Source: a virus
Taxonomy: Duplodnaviria > Heunggongvirae > Uroviricota > Caudoviricetes
IMG/VR virus record: IMGVR_UViG_2563366997_000002
Length of the DNA: 21,588 bases
Reading direction: 5' to 3' (one strand)
Part shown: piece by piece, positions 1,220 through 21,588 of the stretch
Layout: every line of letters starts with the position of its first letter
Position numbering within the stretch: position 1 is the stretch's first letter
Made by a program: the position numbers and the translations under genes
Notes under the pieces: generated by a model
Database searches by the model: none
Seen by the model: the letters and a program-made list of their open reading frames with translations, nothing else
What the model was told of the DNA's origin: nothing

Positions 1220-1419
1220 TTAGTCCGGTATGTTTCTCGCGCTACTACTGCTTACGTTAACGTCTGGTAATGATCTAGCGGCGCGACGTAAAGCGGCGTT
1301 GAAAGCAATTATAGTGACCGGCCGGCATTGGTACTTCACACGGTTAGAATGGCTCTGAAATAAAAAAACATCTTCTGGATAGCGTTCTCTTCTACGAGCA
1401 ATGATCCCCTCCACTGGAG
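1220..1419 (-). pseudogene. tyrosine-recombinase-like gene, 3' part (split by IS4)
   Basis: Joining 2846..3079 to 1220..1419 across one copy of the 11-bp target duplication restores a continuous frame (...KSTPPVE-GIIARRRERYPEDVFLF...). The joined protein has an integrase-core-like segment HTGLSAGRLLSIRYDDIDGD...VKS but no downstream HxxR...Y catalytic region. Confidence 0.5.
1409..1419. repeat. IS4 target-site duplication, left copy (CTCCACTGGAG)
   Basis: Identical 11-mer at 2846..2856 directly flanks the other IS4 end. Confidence 0.85.
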
Positions 1420-2845
1420 TAATGCCGATCAGTTAAGGATCAGTTGACCGATCCAGTGGCTGTGTAAGAATCCGGAAACGCTCACTCGTTTCCGGATTTT
1501 TTTATGCACATTGGACAGGCCCTTGATTTGGTATCCCGTTACGATTCTCTGCGTAACCCACTGACTTCTCTGGGGGATTACCTCGACCCCGAACTCATCT
1601 CTCGTTGCCTTGCCGAATCAGGTACTGTAACGCTACGCAAGCGCCGTCTTCCCCTCGAAATGATGGTCTGGTGTATTGTTGGCATGGCGCTTGAGCGTAA
1701 AGAACCTCTTCACCAGATTGTGAATCGCCTGGACATCATGCTGCCGGGCAATCGCCCCTTCGTTGCCCCCAGTGCCGTTATTCAGGCCCGCCAGCGCCTG
1801 GGAAGTGAGGCTGTCCGCCGCGTGTTCACGAAAACAGCGCAGCTCTGGCATAACGCCACGCCGCATCCGCAATGGTGCGGCCTGACCCTGCTGGCCATCG
1901 ATGGTGTGTTCTGGCGCACACCGGATACACCAGAGAACGATGCAGCCTTCCCCCGCCAGACACATGCCGGGAACCCGGCGCTCTACCCGCAGGTCAAAAT
2001 GGTCTGCCAGATGGAACTGACCAGCCATCTGCTGACGGCTGCAGCCTTCGGCACGATGAAGAACAGCGAAAATGAGCTTGCTGAGCAACTTATAGAACAA
2101 ACCGGCGATAACACTCTGACGTTAATGGACAAAGGTTATTACTCACTGGGACTGTTAAATGCCTGGAGCCTGGCGGGAGAACACCGCCACTGGATGATCC
2201 CTCTCAGAAAGGGAGCGCAATATGAAGAGATCAGAAAACTGGGTAAAGGCGATCATCTGGTGAAGCTGAAAACCAGCCCGCAGGCACGAAAAAAGTGGCC
2301 GGGACTGGGAAATGAGGTGACAGCCCGCCTGCTGACCGTGACGCGCAAAGGAAAAGTCTGCCATCTGCTGACGTCGATGACGGACGCCATGCGCTTCCCC
2401 GGAGGAGAAATGGCGGATCTGTACAGTCATCGCTGGGAAATCGAACTGGGATACAGGGAGATAAAACAGACGATGCAACTGAGCAGGCTGACGCTGAGAA
2501 GTAAAAAGCCGGAGCTTGTGGAGCAAGAGCTGTGGGGTGTCTTACTGGCTTATAATCTGGTGAGATATCAGATGATTAAAATGGCGGAACATCTGAAAGG
2601 TTACTGGCCGAATCAACTGAGTTTCTCAGAATCATGCGGAATGGTGATGAGAATGCTGATGACATTGCAGGGCGCTTCACCGGGACGTATACCGGAGCTG
2701 ATGCACGATCTTGCAAGTATGGGACAACTTGTGAAATTACCGACAAGAAGGGAAAGGGCCTTCCCGAGAGTGGTAAAGGAGAGGCCCTGGAAATACCCCA
2801 CAGCCCCGAAAAAGAGCCAGTCAGTTGCTTAACTGACTGGCATTA
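1420..2845 (+). mobile_element. IS4 insertion sequence, complete copy
   Basis: 1426 bp; imperfect terminal inverted repeats (left TAATGCCGATCAGTTAAGG, right end reverse-complement TAATGCCAGTCAGTTAAGC); single 442-aa transposase ORF; flanked by an 11-bp direct repeat. Confidence 0.95.
1504..2832 (+). CDS. insG: IS4 transposase
   Basis: 442-aa [23 protein letters not shown]..., recognised as the IS4-family transposase; it occupies almost the whole IS. Confidence 0.95.
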
Positions 2846-2856
2846 CTCCACTGGAG
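2846..2856. repeat. IS4 target-site duplication, right copy (CTCCACTGGAG)
   Basis: Exact direct repeat of 1409..1419. Confidence 0.85.
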
Positions 2857-3079
2857 GGGTTGATTTAACACGTAGCTCCTTCAGGTGACCCTGTTTTCGT
2901 ATCAGTATCAAGTCACCATCAATATCATCATATCGAATACTCAGCAGCCTTCCAGCGCTTAAACCCGTGTGAAAAATTAACGCCCACAAGTCAGCCCATG
3001 TATCTGAGATGGAAACAAGATTGCTGTTAATAGTTAAAAATTGCTCAAAACTTATTGTTTTCTTACCGTTCACGAACAA
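2846..3079 (-). pseudogene. tyrosine-recombinase-like gene, 5' part (split by IS4)
   Basis: N-terminal 78 codons (apparent TTG start at 3079); the reading frame runs into the IS4 end where a stop occurs. See 1220..1419. Confidence 0.5.
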
Positions 3080-3156: not shown

Positions 3157-3369
3157 TCAAGTCGCCGGGAGGTACTTGTAGATTGTTTTCACGTCCACGC
3201 CTGTCACATCAGCCACCTGCTGCCGGGTAGCGCCGTTCTCCAGCATTCTGCGGCACCGCTCCACCACTTCTTCAGTCATTATCCGGCGGCGGCCGCCGAC
3301 TCTCTCCTGCTCCATCGCTGCGGACCGACTCGGATGCATTCGGCAAATTCTAGGCCGTGATTTTTCCAA
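3157..3369 (-). pseudogene. serine DNA-invertase (Hin/Gin/Pin/Cin family) C-terminal HTH remnant
   Basis: C-terminal 45 aa, GGRRRIMTEEVVERCRRMLENGATRQQVADVTGVDVKTIYKYLPA, aligns by eye with the Hin C-terminal DNA-binding domain. The N-terminal about 140-aa catalytic domain is absent and the 5' end overlaps the upstream 266-aa gene. Confidence 0.6.
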
Positions 3370-12702: not shown

Positions 12703-13135
12703 GGTGCCAGCCAGTTGCTGGCTGCTTTCGGAACGCTGGTAAAGGTGCCTGGGCGCTGTCTTTCAGGAAGATGGCCAGCGGACGTAGTGCTGTTTTCAGT
12801 TCCGGCGCAGTCCAGGAATCGTCAAAAATAATATGATTCTGGTTGAACTCGCCCATCAGGTACAGGCCGCCGGACTGATCGCCATGGGTGGAAGCGTCAA
12901 CATCATCAACCAGAATGGCCGCTGGCGTCTCGCTACCATCCGTTGCGGTTTTCACACTGGCTGTATATTTGCCACTGGCGGTGATCATGCCAAGCACAGT
13001 GCCACGCTTATACACACCGCCGGTGATCGTGCCGGTGTCAGTGACCAGTTGCAGCGTACCGGCAATTAACTGATCCGGCACAAACACTGAACTCTTCATG
13101 CCAGGTGCAAAGGCATTCTGACCAAATTGATCCAT
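12626..13135 (-). CDS. head decoration protein (lambda gpD-like) with aberrant 3' extension
   Basis: First about 125 aa fit the head-decoration pattern (...AAILVDDVD...GLYLMGEFN...LKTALRPLAIFLK). The last about 40 aa (PLPAFRKQPATGWHHEHADRSAMYRSHDGCCCRLQPNQS) look like out-of-frame read-through. Start overlaps the scaffold-like gene stop (TAATG). Confidence 0.6.
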   Translation of the reverse strand: MDQFGQNAFAPGMKSSVFVPDQLIAGTLQLVTDTGTITGGVYKRGTVLGMITASGKYTASVKTATDGSETPAAILVDDVDASTHGDQSGGLYLMGEFNQNHIIFDDSWTAPELKTALRPLAIFLKDSAQAPLPAFRKQPATGWHHEHADRSAMYRSHDGCCCRLQPNQS

Positions 13136-16495: not shown

Positions 16496-18628
16496 TTATT
16501 GCGGCAGGAGTTTAGAAATGTTCTTACGCTTAACAGGAGCCATAGCCTCATCCACGATGGCACCCGGTAATTCGTAATTGATTTTTTCTTCTGGCTCGGC
16601 TGGCGCCGGCAGGAACTTATCGGGATCGGCCTGAAGGTTAGCGGCCCGAACATTGAGTTTTAATCCCATATGTTTCAGCCCACACAACGCGGCATAGCTG
16701 TAAACGAGGCAGTCGAGTGCTTCGTTCGCCCGTCCGGGGATAGGCTCCCAGACACTGAATCGCTGACCGGCCACCACTTTATAAACCAGTCGCTCGGCCA
16801 GCAGCTGGTTGAAATAGCCGAGGTCACGATCATCCGGGAAGTGCATATAGCCCGCACCGGCAGTACCTAAAGCTGGCGGTTCAAGATGCAGACGACCACG
16901 GACAACATCTTTCGCAGAGTTCACGCCAAGTATAATTGGCCTGAAGCTGGCTTTACTTTTTGATGTCGGTCGCTTGGTTGGCCAGACGGGGTTGCGTTTC
17001 CCACCCTGCGCAGATTCGCCCTTGATAGCCCAGACGCGGCGCCCAAGGCGATCTTTGCAGAACTCATAAACCTTTTGCGTGTGGTGACCGCCGGAGTCCA
17101 TACATGCAGCCAGAATATTCAGCCCTCGCCCGTCGCCGCGTCGCCATATCTGTTTCAGGTACGCATCGAGGCGCTTCCAGGGTTCCTCAGTCTCCAGATC
17201 GCCATAAATGACGTCATGCGCAACTGACCACGATTCCTCGTCCCGCCCCCAGCCAGTGATCGTGATTTCGAATCGGTCATCCTGAGTATCGACGCCCGCA
17301 GTTAACAATGCCACGCCATCAGGAACGACGGCCGGGAAGACTTCACGGCGCGCCAGCAGGACATCAACCGGGAGCTGTTTCCCGTGGTTAGGCCGGTGCG
17401 GCAACCCCATCTGGGTGTTCCACCAGGCCTGTTCCTTATCCGGATCCCCTTTCGCATCGAGGTATTTCTTTGCAATGTCCGATGGCTTGTCTTTTTGCCA
17501 GGGACTGAAGAGTTTTGACGCCTGGTACCCGGCGTGGTGATTATCCAGCGCCTCGGCCCCGCAGTCCGGGCAAATCGCCCGGTATACGGCATGCCGTTCC
17601 GACTCTGACCAGCGCCAGACGGCATCAACACTGCCCTCGTCTCCTTCATGCCATTTCTGGTCGTATTCCATTAATGGTGAATGGCGGGAACCACAACATT
17701 CAAACGGTTTGGTCTGATGCCAGCGGATTGTCTGTAATGCCCGCAGACGCTCACCCTCTGACCAGCCAGCACCACAACATTCACAATGGATCATGGCCGC
17801 TTTGGTCAGGTGCTTATCACCTTCTTTTGGCCATTGAACATGTTTGAAGAAATCAAGGAACTGTCGGTGCCCGCAATGGGGGCAAACTACAGAGGCCCGC
17901 CGCTGATCTGAATCTTCGTAACTGTCAGCAATCCGGCTTTCATCTTCGATCGTCGGCGAACAAGCCCGCACGGACAGCCAGTTAAGGCCAAATGTGGCGG
18001 TTCGCTCTTCCGCCAGAGCGATGGGATCGCCCTCACGGGTAATCGGATATTTATCCACCTCATCTGCCAGCAGAACACGGATCGGACGGCGCGCAAGGTT
18101 ATCTGGACTACCGGCGCCGGCCAGCGCCAGAAATCCGCCGGTGAAAGCTTTATACAGAATGGTTTCTTTTGAACTCTTCTGCTTTGAGTCACCTATGATG
18201 TTACGCAGAACTGGCGTTACCCTAACCAGCGGGCTGATGCGTTCTTTGGAAAACTGCTCAGCGGCCTCTTCCTTCGGCTGCAGGAGCAAAATCGGACATG
18301 GGTCGAGGTGCGCAAAATAACCAAACAGGTTTTCCAGCAGCGCGGTTTTCATTAACTGGGTACAGCACATCACGGTGATAATGTGGACGCCCGATTCCGT
18401 CGCGGCCAGCATAGGACCGCGGGCAATTTCAACCGTTGATGTTTCCCAGTTCCCGGAGGTACTGCCAGCTTCTTTCGCCAGCTTCCGGTAGTCATCGGCC
18501 CATTGCGGGACGCTGATCCGCGGCGGCGGTGTCCACCCTTTCCGGACACTCAGTTGAAGACGCTCAATCTTCCGCTGGGTTAAACTCTGGTTCTCCGAGG
18601 ACTGAGATATGTTTGTGGACATGTTCAA
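16496..18628 (-). CDS. terminase large subunit (lambda gpA family)
   Basis: 710 aa; contains the VDTQDDRFEITITGWGRDEESW segment I recognise from gpA-type terminases; 5' end overlaps the small-subunit gene as in lambda. Confidence 0.9.
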   Translation of the reverse strand: MNMSTNISQSSENQSLTQRKIERLQLSVRKGWTPPPRISVPQWADDYRKLAKEAGSTSGNWETSTVEIARGPMLAATESGVHIITVMCCTQLMKTALLENLFGYFAHLDPCPILLLQPKEEAAEQFSKERISPLVRVTPVLRNIIGDSKQKSSKETILYKAFTGGFLALAGAGSPDNLARRPIRVLLADEVDKYPITREGDPIALAEERTATFGLNWLSVRACSPTIEDESRIADSYEDSDQRRASVVCPHCGHRQFLDFFKHVQWPKEGDKHLTKAAMIHCECCGAGWSEGERLRALQTIRWHQTKPFECCGSRHSPLMEYDQKWHEGDEGSVDAVWRWSESERHAVYRAICPDCGAEALDNHHAGYQASKLFSPWQKDKPSDIAKKYLDAKGDPDKEQAWWNTQMGLPHRPNHGKQLPVDVLLARREVFPAVVPDGVALLTAGVDTQDDRFEITITGWGRDEESWSVAHDVIYGDLETEEPWKRLDAYLKQIWRRGDGRGLNILAACMDSGGHHTQKVYEFCKDRLGRRVWAIKGESAQGGKRNPVWPTKRPTSKSKASFRPIILGVNSAKDVVRGRLHLEPPALGTAGAGYMHFPDDRDLGYFNQLLAERLVYKVVAGQRFSVWEPIPGRANEALDCLVYSYAALCGLKHMGLKLNVRAANLQADPDKFLPAPAEPEEKINYELPGAIVDEAMAPVKRKNISKLLPQ

Positions 18629-19127
18629 TCAGCACCTCTGTCATCCTGTCCGCCGGCACATTCAGATCGGCGGCTATCAGCGGTGCCACGCGTGAAGGCC
18701 AGTTCAGCCAGGCATCACGCTGCTGGCGAAAGGCGTTAAACAGAACCTCCTCGGCGATGGCCAATTCAATTGTCTGGCCGCTGTCTTTTTCATACTGGAG
18801 CTTTGCCTGCAGGGCCATGTAATTTTCACGGATCCGCGCGGCCTCTTCCCTGGAAAGGACTGCACCTTCTGTAAGCATTATCTGGCGAACGGTTTCATCA
18901 ATTTCATCGTCGCCATCATTCCGGGGTGCTGGGGCTTTTTTCTTCTTCGCGTTTGATGCCCGCGGATCTTTTCCATCACGGTTTTTCTTCAGCGCGGCAT
19001 CGCTCGCCTCAACATCAATCAGGTCGCCATCCATGACGATAAACCGACCAGCCTTGATCCATCGGCCAATAGTCTTGCGATCGACGCCTGAATGTTGCGC
19101 GTACTGACTCTGGTTCATCGTGGTCAT
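18564..19127 (-). CDS. terminase small subunit (lambda Nu1-like)
   Basis: 187 aa; N-terminal HTH-like segment (DRKTIGRWIKAGRFIV) like Nu1; immediately downstream of a repeat-rich putative cos region. Confidence 0.8.
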   Translation of the reverse strand: MTTMNQSQYAQHSGVDRKTIGRWIKAGRFIVMDGDLIDVEASDAALKKNRDGKDPRASNAKKKKAPAPRNDGDDEIDETVRQIMLTEGAVLSREEAARIRENYMALQAKLQYEKDSGQTIELAIAEEVLFNAFRQQRDAWLNWPSRVAPLIAADLNVPADRMTEVLIEHVHKHISVLGEPEFNPAED

Positions 19128-19273
19128 GGGACATCACCTGGGACATTTTTGGGGTGGGACATTTACCTGGGACATTTTTTCAATGTCCCACACGAATGTC
19201 CCACTGGAATAAATGGAATAATCCGTGCTGGCTCTGGCGTGGCTGGCGATCCCTTGGGGTGGGACATGGGACA
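19128..19273. repeat. putative cosB-like terminase-binding repeat cluster (TGGGACAT motif)
   Basis: TGGGACAT direct copies at 19139, 19155, 19168 and 19260 (plus GGGACAT at 19128), and inverted copies ATGTCCCA at 19183 and 19196, all within 150 bp upstream of the small-terminase start. Confidence 0.45.
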
Positions 19274-19374
19274 CAAAATAAAAGTTTGTAGCTAGGAAAA
19301 CACTGCGGCGCGCAATGCCCGTGCCTTACAAAAGTCTCAGGAAGGACCCAAACCCTATGGGGTAGGTATTCAGG

Positions 19375-19899
19375 TCATTTTGCCGTTCGAATCGCTTCCT
19401 CAATCGCCCTACTCAGCGCGCCGGGCATTAAGCCGGCTGCCATTGACCGTGAGCGGTTCATGTAGTCAAGCGTAGGCGTAACAGGTAGAGCATCACCAAA
19501 CCTCACCAGCAGCTTAGGAGCACGCTGTTTCCGCTTTGGTCTGCGCGTACCATTCGCTGAGCGCCGGGCTCGTTTCTTTTTCGCCTTCTTCGGTTTACGC
19601 CTCTGCCAGACAGCATCAACACCATTGACCTCACCTACGAACACATTCGGCTTCGCTTTCAACTGCGACAGCTTATTTCGCGGCATGTTGCCGTATTTGT
19701 TCAGTTTGATGTTCTTTGGATTGAGCAGCGCCTGGCTGTTCAGTTTATGTTCACCACCAAATTCAAAGGGTTCGAGATATTCAGCGGCGACATCGCGCAC
19801 AAAGACTTTTGCGCGGAGGTTGTTCTTTCTGGCGCCAGCAGAGCCCACTGAGTTGACGGTGAACGGCGTCGGCGATTCCAGTTTTCGCCCCAGTGCCAC
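19375..19899 (-). CDS. hypothetical highly basic protein (174 aa)
   Basis: Long ORF between the integrase remnant and the cos-like region, same strand as the late operon; Lys/Arg-rich tract RRKPKKAKKKRARRSANGTRRPKRKQRAPK; no Cys. No family recognised; could be spurious. Confidence 0.35.
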   Translation of the reverse strand: MALGRKLESPTPFTVNSVGSAGARKNNLRAKVFVRDVAAEYLEPFEFGGEHKLNSQALLNPKNIKLNKYGNMPRNKLSQLKAKPNVFVGEVNGVDAVWQRRKPKKAKKKRARRSANGTRRPKRKQRAPKLLVRFGDALPVTPTLDYMNRSRSMAAGLMPGALSRAIEEAIRTAK

Positions 19900-20495
19900 C
19901 TTTTGCGCTGCGGCGATATCAGCGTGGTTATGTACCAGGTAATCCGTGTGTTGGTGTCGATAAGTTTCCTAAACCCCAGCGCGACCGCTACATAACTGAT
20001 GAAGAGTACATAGCTATCTTCACTCATGCGACACCTGCAGTTAAAGCCGCGATGGAAATTGCGTATCTTTGCGCTGCAAGGGTATCTGATGTTCTTAAAA
20101 TGAACTGGAATCAGATTCTTGATAAAGGAATTTTCATACAGCAAGGTAAAACTGGTATTAAACAGATCAAAGCCTGGACTGAGCGTCTTAGTGCGGCTGT
20201 GGATATTTGCAGGGAATGGGGACAGGATGGCCCTGTTATCAGGACAATGTATGGTGAGCGTTATTCATACAAGGGATTTAATGAAGCATGGAGAAAAGCG
20301 AGAAACGCGGCTTCTGAAGAACTTGGTAGGCCACTTGATTGCACCTTCCATGATCTAAAGGCTAAAGGGATCTCAGACTATGAAGGATCTGGCAGGGATA
20401 AGCAAAAATTCAGTGGTCATAAGACAGAATCACAGGTACTTGTTTACGACAGGAAAGTTAAAATCAGCCCAACGTTGAACAAGAAAATGAGATGA
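19893..20495 (+). pseudogene. tyrosine integrase, catalytic C-terminal domain only (5'-truncated)
   Basis: 200-aa ORF with an integrase catalytic-domain pattern (HDLKAKGISD ... SGHKTESQVLVYDR with the nucleophile Tyr). The frame is closed by a stop at 19860..19862 and no upstream frame encodes an integrase N-terminal domain. Ends 112 bp from the tRNA 3' end. Confidence 0.8.
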
Positions 20496-20607
20496 TTCTT
20501 TGGCGTCGGAGCATGCTTCGGCGCTAGAATTTTTCTCAGTGGATTTTCTCAATTTTTCTCATCGGGATGCAGGTCACTGAAAGGGAATGCTGTAAGTGTT
20601 TGAATAG

Positions 20608-20697
20608 TGGCGGAGAGAGGGGGATTTGAACCCCCGGTAGAGTTGCCCCTACTCCGGTTTTCGAGACCGGTCCGTTCAGCCGCTCCGGCATCTCTCC
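20608..20697 (-). tRNA. serU: tRNA-Ser (anticodon CGA)
   Basis: The reverse complement is a 90-nt class II tRNA (GGAGAGATGCCGGAGCGGCTGAACGGACCGGTCTCGAAAACCGG...GGGGGTTCAAATCCCCCTCTCTCCGCCA) with a 7-bp acceptor stem, CGA anticodon, long variable arm and encoded CCA. Confidence 0.93.
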
Positions 20698-20790
20698 GTT
20701 CAGATGGTTGCCATGATGCCAGGAAATTTGGCATTTTAACAGTCCCTGTCCGTGCAATTTTGTTCAAGTGACGAGTTTGCGAGCAAAACG

Positions 20791-21588
20791 ATGATTAAGT
20801 GGCCCTGGAAAGTACAAGAATCAGCACATCAAACTGCCCTTCCCTGGCAGGAAGCACTATCGATCCCCCTTTTAACGGGTCTGACGGAACAGGAACAAAG
20901 CAAATTAGTCACTCTTGCCGAACGTTTTTTACAGCAAAAGCGGCTTGTTCCTTTACAGGGCTTTGAACTGGATTCATTAAGAAGCTGCCGGATAGCACTT
21001 CTATTTTGCCTACCCGTTCTGGAGTTAGGACTGGAATGGCTGGATGGTTTTCATGAAGTCTTAATTTATCCTGCGCCATTTGTGGTCGATGATGAATGGG
21101 AAGACGATATCGGTCTGGTGCATAACCAACGTATTGTTCAGTCAGGTCAGAGCTGGCAGCAAGGGCCTATCGTTTTGAACTGGTTGGATATACAAGATTC
21201 TTTTGATGCTTCTGGTTTTAACCTGATTATTCATGAAGTCGCTCATAAGCTGGACACCCGTAACGGCGATCGCGCCAGCGGAGTTCCCTTTATTCCGTTG
21301 CGTGAGGTTGCTGGCTGGGAACACGATCTTCATGCTGCAATGAACAACATTCAGGAAGAAATCGAATTGGTTGGCGAGAATGCGGCGAGCATTGATGCTT
21401 ATGCTGCCAGTGATCCTGCTGAATGTTTTGCCGTACTTTCTGAATATTTCTTTAGCGCCCCAGAACTTTTTGCTCCTCGTTTCCCTTCATTGTGGCAACG
21501 TTTCTGCCAATTTTATCAACAAGATCCTTTGCAGAGACTGCATCGCACTAATGATACAGACTCGTTTTCGGCGACGAATGTTCATTAA
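20791..21588 (+). CDS. mtfA: Mlc titration factor A (zinc-dependent peptidase family)
   Basis: 265 aa from ATG at 20791 ([23 protein letters not shown]...); the ORF track starts at 20752 on an upstream in-frame codon. HEVAH zinc-binding motif present; the stop codon is the last 3 bases of the window. Confidence 0.9.

Follow-up and report, generated by a model that had tools for sequence, protein, structure and literature searches.

The window analyzed here, a stretch of 21,588 nucleotides from the IMG/VR virus record IMGVR_UViG_2563366997_000002, almost certainly holds the 3' remnant of an integrase gene (int) of a cryptic prophage, made by one illegitimate deletion that leaves the gene dead and the element without a means of excising itself. 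The integrase is truncated at codon 133, at a junction with a late gene of the phage; the excisionase gene (xis) and the early, regulatory and lysis genes are lost, and the att repeats are intact. The fragment is presumably not expressed and the element presumably does not excise. An earlier note on this DNA had already described an integrase reduced to its catalytic domain beside a tRNA-Ser gene. The features on which the analysis rests are collected in Table 1.

Table 1. Features in and around the integrase remnant (positions of the window)
Feature	Position	Strand	Evidence
Small terminase subunit gene (terS)	18564..19127	-	phrog_57 (E 1.7e-34), annotation
5'-truncated late gene, phrog_1924 'minor tail protein', no Pfam family	19375..19920	-	DY612 alignment, PHROG (E 5.5e-59), PGAP partial
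Open-frame leader, not integrase-derived, holding the sole possible start, GTG 19893	19863..19916	+	three-way junction alignment
Proposed deletion junction, 4-nt microhomology TATC common to both parents	19917..19920	.	three-way alignment
Integrase pseudogene, codons 133-324 and stop of a 324-aa lambda-like tyrosine integrase	19917..20495	+	tblastn, DNA alignment to 13P484A, Pfam, lambda Int structures, PGAP
Terminator-like hairpin, 13 pairs then a T run, right after the int stop	20499..20528	+	sequence
Three direct copies of TTTTCTCA, between int and tRNA	20531..20561	+	repeat count
attL, one copy of the 64-bp repeat, made up of the 3' 62 nt of serU and 2 further nt	20606..20669	.	HS reference repeat, K-12 empty-site homology
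Intact tRNA-Ser(CGA) gene serU, identical to K-12	20608-20697	-	ARAGORN, K-12 comparison
Host gene mtfA, chromosomal side of attL	20791..21588	+	Pfam, annotation

The int frame is open on the plus strand from 19863 to the TGA stop at 20493-20495 and, as the earlier note had it, is closed upstream, the stop being a TGA at 19860-19862 (ORF listing and sequence). The earliest possible start in this frame is GTG 19893; an in-frame ATG first appears 54 codons downstream of it. The comparison with full-length integrases that the note had proposed was carried out by tblastn with a 324-aa relative: residues 133-324 matched 19917-20492 with 100% identity (E 9e-132), the break falling at 19917, and residues 1-132 had no match in any window frame (best E 0.85). 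Its statements that only the C-terminal catalytic half is encoded, and that no other frame supplies the arm-binding or core-binding domains, are thus borne out, and its observation is far above chance. The interval given for the gene, 19863-20495, stands only in part, since 19917-20495 is integrase and 19863-19916 proved to be the antisense strand of the adjoining truncated late gene in the junction alignment. The missing 132 residues cover the arm-binding-like N-terminus together with nearly the whole core-binding domain, the portion kept being the last ~10 core-binding residues and the full catalytic domain.

The ORF matches the Pfam family PF00589 (Phage_integrase) over profile positions 3-167 of 172 (E 3.2e-10, 40.5 bits, the curated cut-off being 27.1 bits), and the whole catalytic domain is kept. 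The full-length relative matches phrog_1 (integrase) with an E value of 2e-52 and the best PDB matches are lambda Int structures (E 3e-12 to 1e-9). Lambda Int (PDB 1z1b, 1z19, 1p7d, 5j0n and 1ae9) has the same catalytic-domain layout as the serU integrase. In full-length numbering, the active-site residues found in the remnant are R187, K210, H277, K280, H300 and Y309, all encoded inside 19917-20495; the tyrosine nucleophile, Arg I, the beta-hairpin Lys and both His are present. Residues R187, K210, H277, H300 and Y309 align with lambda R212, K235, H308, H333 and Y342, and column counts show them conserved in 95-100 of 100 family representatives, which were chosen at 50% identity. The second Arg of the Arg-His-Arg triad (R311, Arg II, in lambda) is not present in the remnant, which has a Lys at this place (K280) in the motif HDLK, encoded at window 20334-20345 (codons 277-280). 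Because this column holds Lys in 73 of the 100 diverse full-length representatives (Arg in 26) and in 77 of 80 close IMG/VR relatives, the Lys is a family trait and not decay, an Arg-His-Lys triad being natural in a large clade of lambda-like integrases. A 2026 paper (PMC12884075) describes the same Arg to Lys substitution in two integrases of Pseudomonas and efficient DNA integration by one of them.

A library-wide phmmer search with the fragment returned 1,882 relatives. The short, catalytic-only form is not a natural architecture of the family, because the median number of residues N-terminal of the breakpoint column is 140 among the 100 full-length representatives. By Pfam, the catalytic domain of the full-length protein spans residues 158-311 and the core-binding domain ~55-144, the latter with sub-threshold matches (Phage_int_M, 24.1 bits for a cut-off of 27; SAM_4, 19.9 bits). 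Its N-terminal PKGVFFRPSGYYWKP stretch bears a resemblance, and only that, to the arm-binding N-terminus of lambda Int. The full-length protein is shorter than lambda Int (324 vs 356 aa), and the window copy, unlike lambda Int, lacks the first 132 residues.

Among 5,426 complete E. coli genomes int is present in 32, being full-length, at the same site, in 26 and truncated in six, namely four assemblies of strain HS and two clonal O9:H10 pig isolates. In 13P484A, a 975-bp int that encodes 324 aa (WP_047633075.1) is found at the equivalent position relative to serU; the window DNA is identical to this gene from 19917 on save for one synonymous base, and unrelated to it before 19917. This integrase and that of strain MIN9 (WP_115799539.1) have the same 192 residues as the remnant, with 100% protein identity, and the same int-serU spacer and tRNA are found in both strains; however, both integrases are complete (324-330 aa), whereas the window copy lacks codons 1-132. 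In MIN9 a DUF4224 excisionase gene precedes int, whereas the window has no xis. The arrangement of the full-length serU relatives is also that of lambda, where xis lies just upstream and int is transcribed toward att. The serU element of 13P484A (L002; NZ_CP019280.1 2153304-2170196) is a remnant complementary to the one in HS: int is full-length there and some of the early region (ParB, RacR, YmfL and Dam) survives, with an IS5 insertion; the element shares its left end and an acyltransferase gene with HS, and lacks the whole baseplate-to-terminase block, which HS keeps.

Upstream of the breakpoint the window is occupied by the late gene. In the DY612 prophage this gene is complete (212 aa) and occupies the opposite strand, with the lysis genes to one side of it and cos/terS to the other; in the window it is without the first 31 of its 212 codons, showing 97-98% DNA identity to DY612 L004:20476-21114, and window 18900-19917 is 97% identical to the DY612 prophage. 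In a three-way alignment the window tracks the late-gene parent as far as ...GCGATATC and the int parent beginning with TATCAGCGTGG..., the two 5'-truncated genes meeting head-to-head at TATC, which lies within 15 nt of partial similarity (19906-19920). When an internal deletion joins two divergently oriented genes, just such a layout results, a head-to-head pair in which each gene has lost its 5' end. As terS and terL (16496-18628) show, late genes now adjoin the int remnant directly. Immediately upstream of the small terminase gene, at 19130-19270, there are several direct GGGACAT-containing repeats, for example ACCTGGGACATTTTT and TTGGGGTGGGACAT, each present twice; a cos site, with repeats bound by terminase, would be expected at this place.

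The earlier note had allowed for a sequencing frameshift upstream of 19860 that hides a full-length int. This is ruled out, since the DNA in question is another gene on the opposite strand, with 97-98% identity to its phage counterpart, and the same junction recurs in six assemblies: by megablast, window 19100-20800 is 100% identical to E. coli HS (NC_009800.1) and to five other complete assemblies, three more of HS and those of the two pig isolates. Misassembly or any other artefact of this kind has nothing but its a priori possibility on its side, and the encoding of residues 1-132 in no window frame, together with an identical junction in four independent HS assemblies, leaves it a vanishingly small probability. 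PGAP labels window 19917-20495 as 'tyrosine-type recombinase/integrase, incomplete, missing N-terminus' and window 19375-19917 (minus strand) as 'hypothetical protein, incomplete, missing N-terminus'; both partial pseudogenes are already marked in RefSeq/PGAP.

The undeleted layout can be seen in MIN9, where serU is occupied by a related prophage whose int is full-length. The genes of this prophage run in the order baseplate/tail, head, portal, gpW, terL, terS, late ORF, Rha, lysis, DUF1133 and DUF968, followed by RusA, Dam, YmfL, Cro/CI, a LexA-like repressor and ParB, and then by several small ORFs, DUF4224, int, serU and mtfA. Window 19379-19920 corresponds to MIN9 L007 21089-21630 and window 19906-21588 to L007 36143-37823; because these flanking matches sit ~14.5 kb apart in MIN9, about that length is missing from the window. 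Between the two breakpoints MIN9 carries lysis, regulatory, replication and immunity genes, the excisionase and the 5' half of int. The DUF4224 protein encoded just upstream of int belongs to the PHROG excisionase family phrog_1266 (E 1e-29), of which the window has no homologue. The view of the earlier note that the element is locked in place is therefore a sound one, the integrase being truncated and the excisionase that precedes int in intact relatives being gone as well. A further candidate for the intact parent, L37, was rejected, as the 3' end of its int and the flank differ and no serU follows.

The two sides of the junction are not equally close to the same relative: the late region shows 98% identity to DY612, vs about 90-92% to MIN9, and the int-serU region is 99% identical to MIN9. 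The exact parent is for this reason absent among sequenced genomes, and the deleted length is an estimate. These values could also be taken to mean that the junction arose by illegitimate recombination between two elements, for example with a tandem or superinfecting relative, with the late block and int of different origin, the more so as the DY612 prophage is integrated elsewhere and has another integrase. We consider this improbable, however, because a deletion in a MIN9-type prophage at serU would give precisely this order and orientation, the left end and attR are 100% identical to those of 13P484A, a carrier of full-length int, and lambdoid mosaicism alone accounts for uneven identities. 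Under a two-element origin, too, the integrase is a truncated pseudogene, and no evidence contradicts the reading as a deletion.

A deletion within one prophage almost certainly took the following course. A prophage integrated into the 3' half of serU, with a lambda-like ancestral order of tail, head, terL, terS, cos, late ORF, lysis, Q/nin-like, replication and immunity genes, continuing with early genes, xis, int and attL/serU. A single illegitimate recombination at TATC removed ~14.5 kb, with one endpoint at late-ORF codon 31 and the other at int codon 132, joining two 5'-truncated genes head-to-head. The int remnant was left without promoter, ribosome-binding site, arm-binding domain and essentially without core-binding domain; with int crippled and xis deleted the element could not excise by its own means and would be inherited as chromosomal DNA. 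Read in this way, the junction would be a base-pair-level record of prophage fixation, in which one microhomology-mediated deletion takes the early region and cuts into int. The deletion is recent.

Expression of what is left appears unlikely, because the native upstream region has been lost, a search of 19100-20800 gave no sigma-70-like promoter and no Shine-Dalgarno sequence is visible upstream of GTG 19893. The arm-binding and core-binding domains of lambda Int are needed for assembly of the recombinogenic complex, and the catalytic domain on its own retains only a weak topoisomerase-type activity in vitro; because of the latter, the fragment, if made, is not necessarily chemically inert. 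We read the gene as dead since its promoter and ribosome-binding site are gone together with the arm-binding domain and essentially all of the core-binding domain, although sequence decay cannot confirm non-function, as only one synonymous base differs from the intact gene. In a published assay a 'heavily truncated' tyrosine integrase showed no recombination (PMC12884075).

Could the fragment nevertheless work as a catalytic-domain-only protein, made from GTG 19893 or an internal start, with a topoisomerase-like or dominant-negative role that shields serU from related phages? An ORF of 200 codons with a GTG start exists in the remnant and is intact, all catalytic residues are present and a terminator-like hairpin follows the ORF, which would suit such a protein. 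We nevertheless hold it to be very improbable: besides the deleted upstream region and the missing promoter-like site and Shine-Dalgarno sequence, the junction is limited to one strain lineage and one clonal pair, the near-zero divergence from the intact gene makes the intactness a matter of youth and not of selection, and the core-binding domain required for specific DNA binding is missing. There is equally little reason to expect that a low-level product of the ORF hinders incoming serU-targeting phage integrases, for example by non-productive mixed assemblies at attB; if it did, the remnant would be a relic giving site-specific exclusion of lysogeny. In practice, gene callers and prophage predictors that score mobility should leave this ORF out of the integrase count; beyond correct annotation, the significance of the finding is slight.

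The chromosomal context was established by comparison with HS and K-12. In HS the locus reads yodB, the element, serU, mtfA, asnT and yeeJ; in the empty site of K-12 serU comes directly after yodB, and homology of the window to this site starts at 20606, 2 nt beyond the 3' end of the tRNA. ARAGORN finds one tRNA only in the window, tRNA-Ser(cga). The int stop is separated from the tRNA 3' end (20608) by a spacer at 20496-20607, in agreement with the 112 bp stated by the earlier note. A repeat search found no far att repeat within the window, which begins 271 bp inside the element, so that attR lies outside, 271 bp beyond its left end. The search for the att core beyond the window, also suggested by the note, was successful in the HS reference, where a 64-bp perfect direct repeat is found at L001:2005-2068 (attR) and L001:21507-21570 (attL). 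The repeat reaches the anticodon region of serU, and its attR copy, labeled 'tRNA-OTHER' by PGAP, comes directly after yodB-serU spacer sequence as in K-12. The left end of the element together with attR is common, with 100% identity, to the HS-type element and 13P484A. The attachment site is thus the 3' half of a tRNA gene, vs an intergenic site for lambda.

The octamer TTTTCTCA occurs nine times in 41.7 kb of HS, for 1.85 copies expected, and five of these nine copies lie within about 110 bp of the att cores. Apart from the three on the int side, which are also present in MIN9, there are two near attR (HS L001:2108-2115, minus strand, and 2171-2178, plus strand), one of them inverted, within 110 bp. 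By analogy with lambda attP, these copies are plausible candidates for arm-type integrase binding sites, on the P' side for the three between int and the tRNA; the five copies flanking both att cores, three on the int side and two on the far side, are reminiscent of the five arm-type sites of lambda attP.

As to excision, a complete int together with xis is lacking in the remnant and the att sites are there. Self-excision is presumably precluded because int is crippled and xis deleted. Both attL and attR look intact, and for this reason a related phage that provides Int and Xis might excise the element in trans. The serU element of HS-type E. coli strains is thus a dead remnant with its att sites still intact.

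The element as a whole is a cryptic prophage remnant, combining a lambda-type head/terminase module with a contractile tail, with Citrobacter phage phiNP and Serratia phage BZS1 as relatives. Like other cryptic defective prophages of E. coli, it is flanked by att sites at a tRNA gene, lacks regulatory, replication and lysis genes, and contains an IS and frameshifted genes; unlike these in general, it has a deletion endpoint inside int itself. Known examples of such defective prophages are the cryptic prophages of K-12 and the defective prophage pool of O157 Sakai. Compared with MIN9 and DY612 there is a second loss, of 7.8 kb of head/tail genes (a DNA-circularisation gene, tape measure, tube, sheath, head-tail joining and major capsid), with its junction at window 12737-12741, where a short microhomology, TGGT, was observed.

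A complete IS4 of 1426 bp is present at 1420-2845, with an 11-bp target-site duplication (CTCCACTGGAG; 1409-1419 and 2846-2856), terminal inverted repeats TAATGCC...TCAGTTAAG and a transposase of 442 aa (1504-2832; Pfam Nterm_IS4 and DDE_Tnp_1). None of the complete E. coli genomes searched, including the four HS assemblies, has IS4 at this position; therefore the window comes from an HS-like genome outside that collection. The insertion splits an ORF of 140 aa, WP_024186700.1 (window 1220-1419 and 2846-3079, minus strand; HS L001:3558-3980), which older PGAP versions call 'hypothetical' and newer ones 'site-specific integrase'; it has no Pfam match, a match to phrog_19751 (unknown function) and a weak match to phrog_1. 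We considered this ORF as the home of the missing N-terminal half of int and rejected it, as it is unrelated to residues 1-132.

Other relics are found toward the left end. An ORF for an S24/S26 peptidase (UmuD-like) occupies 1-393 on the minus strand, and a frameshifted DNA polymerase V gene lies at about 330-560. A 44-nt repeat is present at 1158-1201 and 3173-3216 with 84% identity between its copies, and at 3157-3321 (minus strand) the C-terminal HTH_7 part of a resolvase remains, the relic of an invertase close to the tail-fibre genes.
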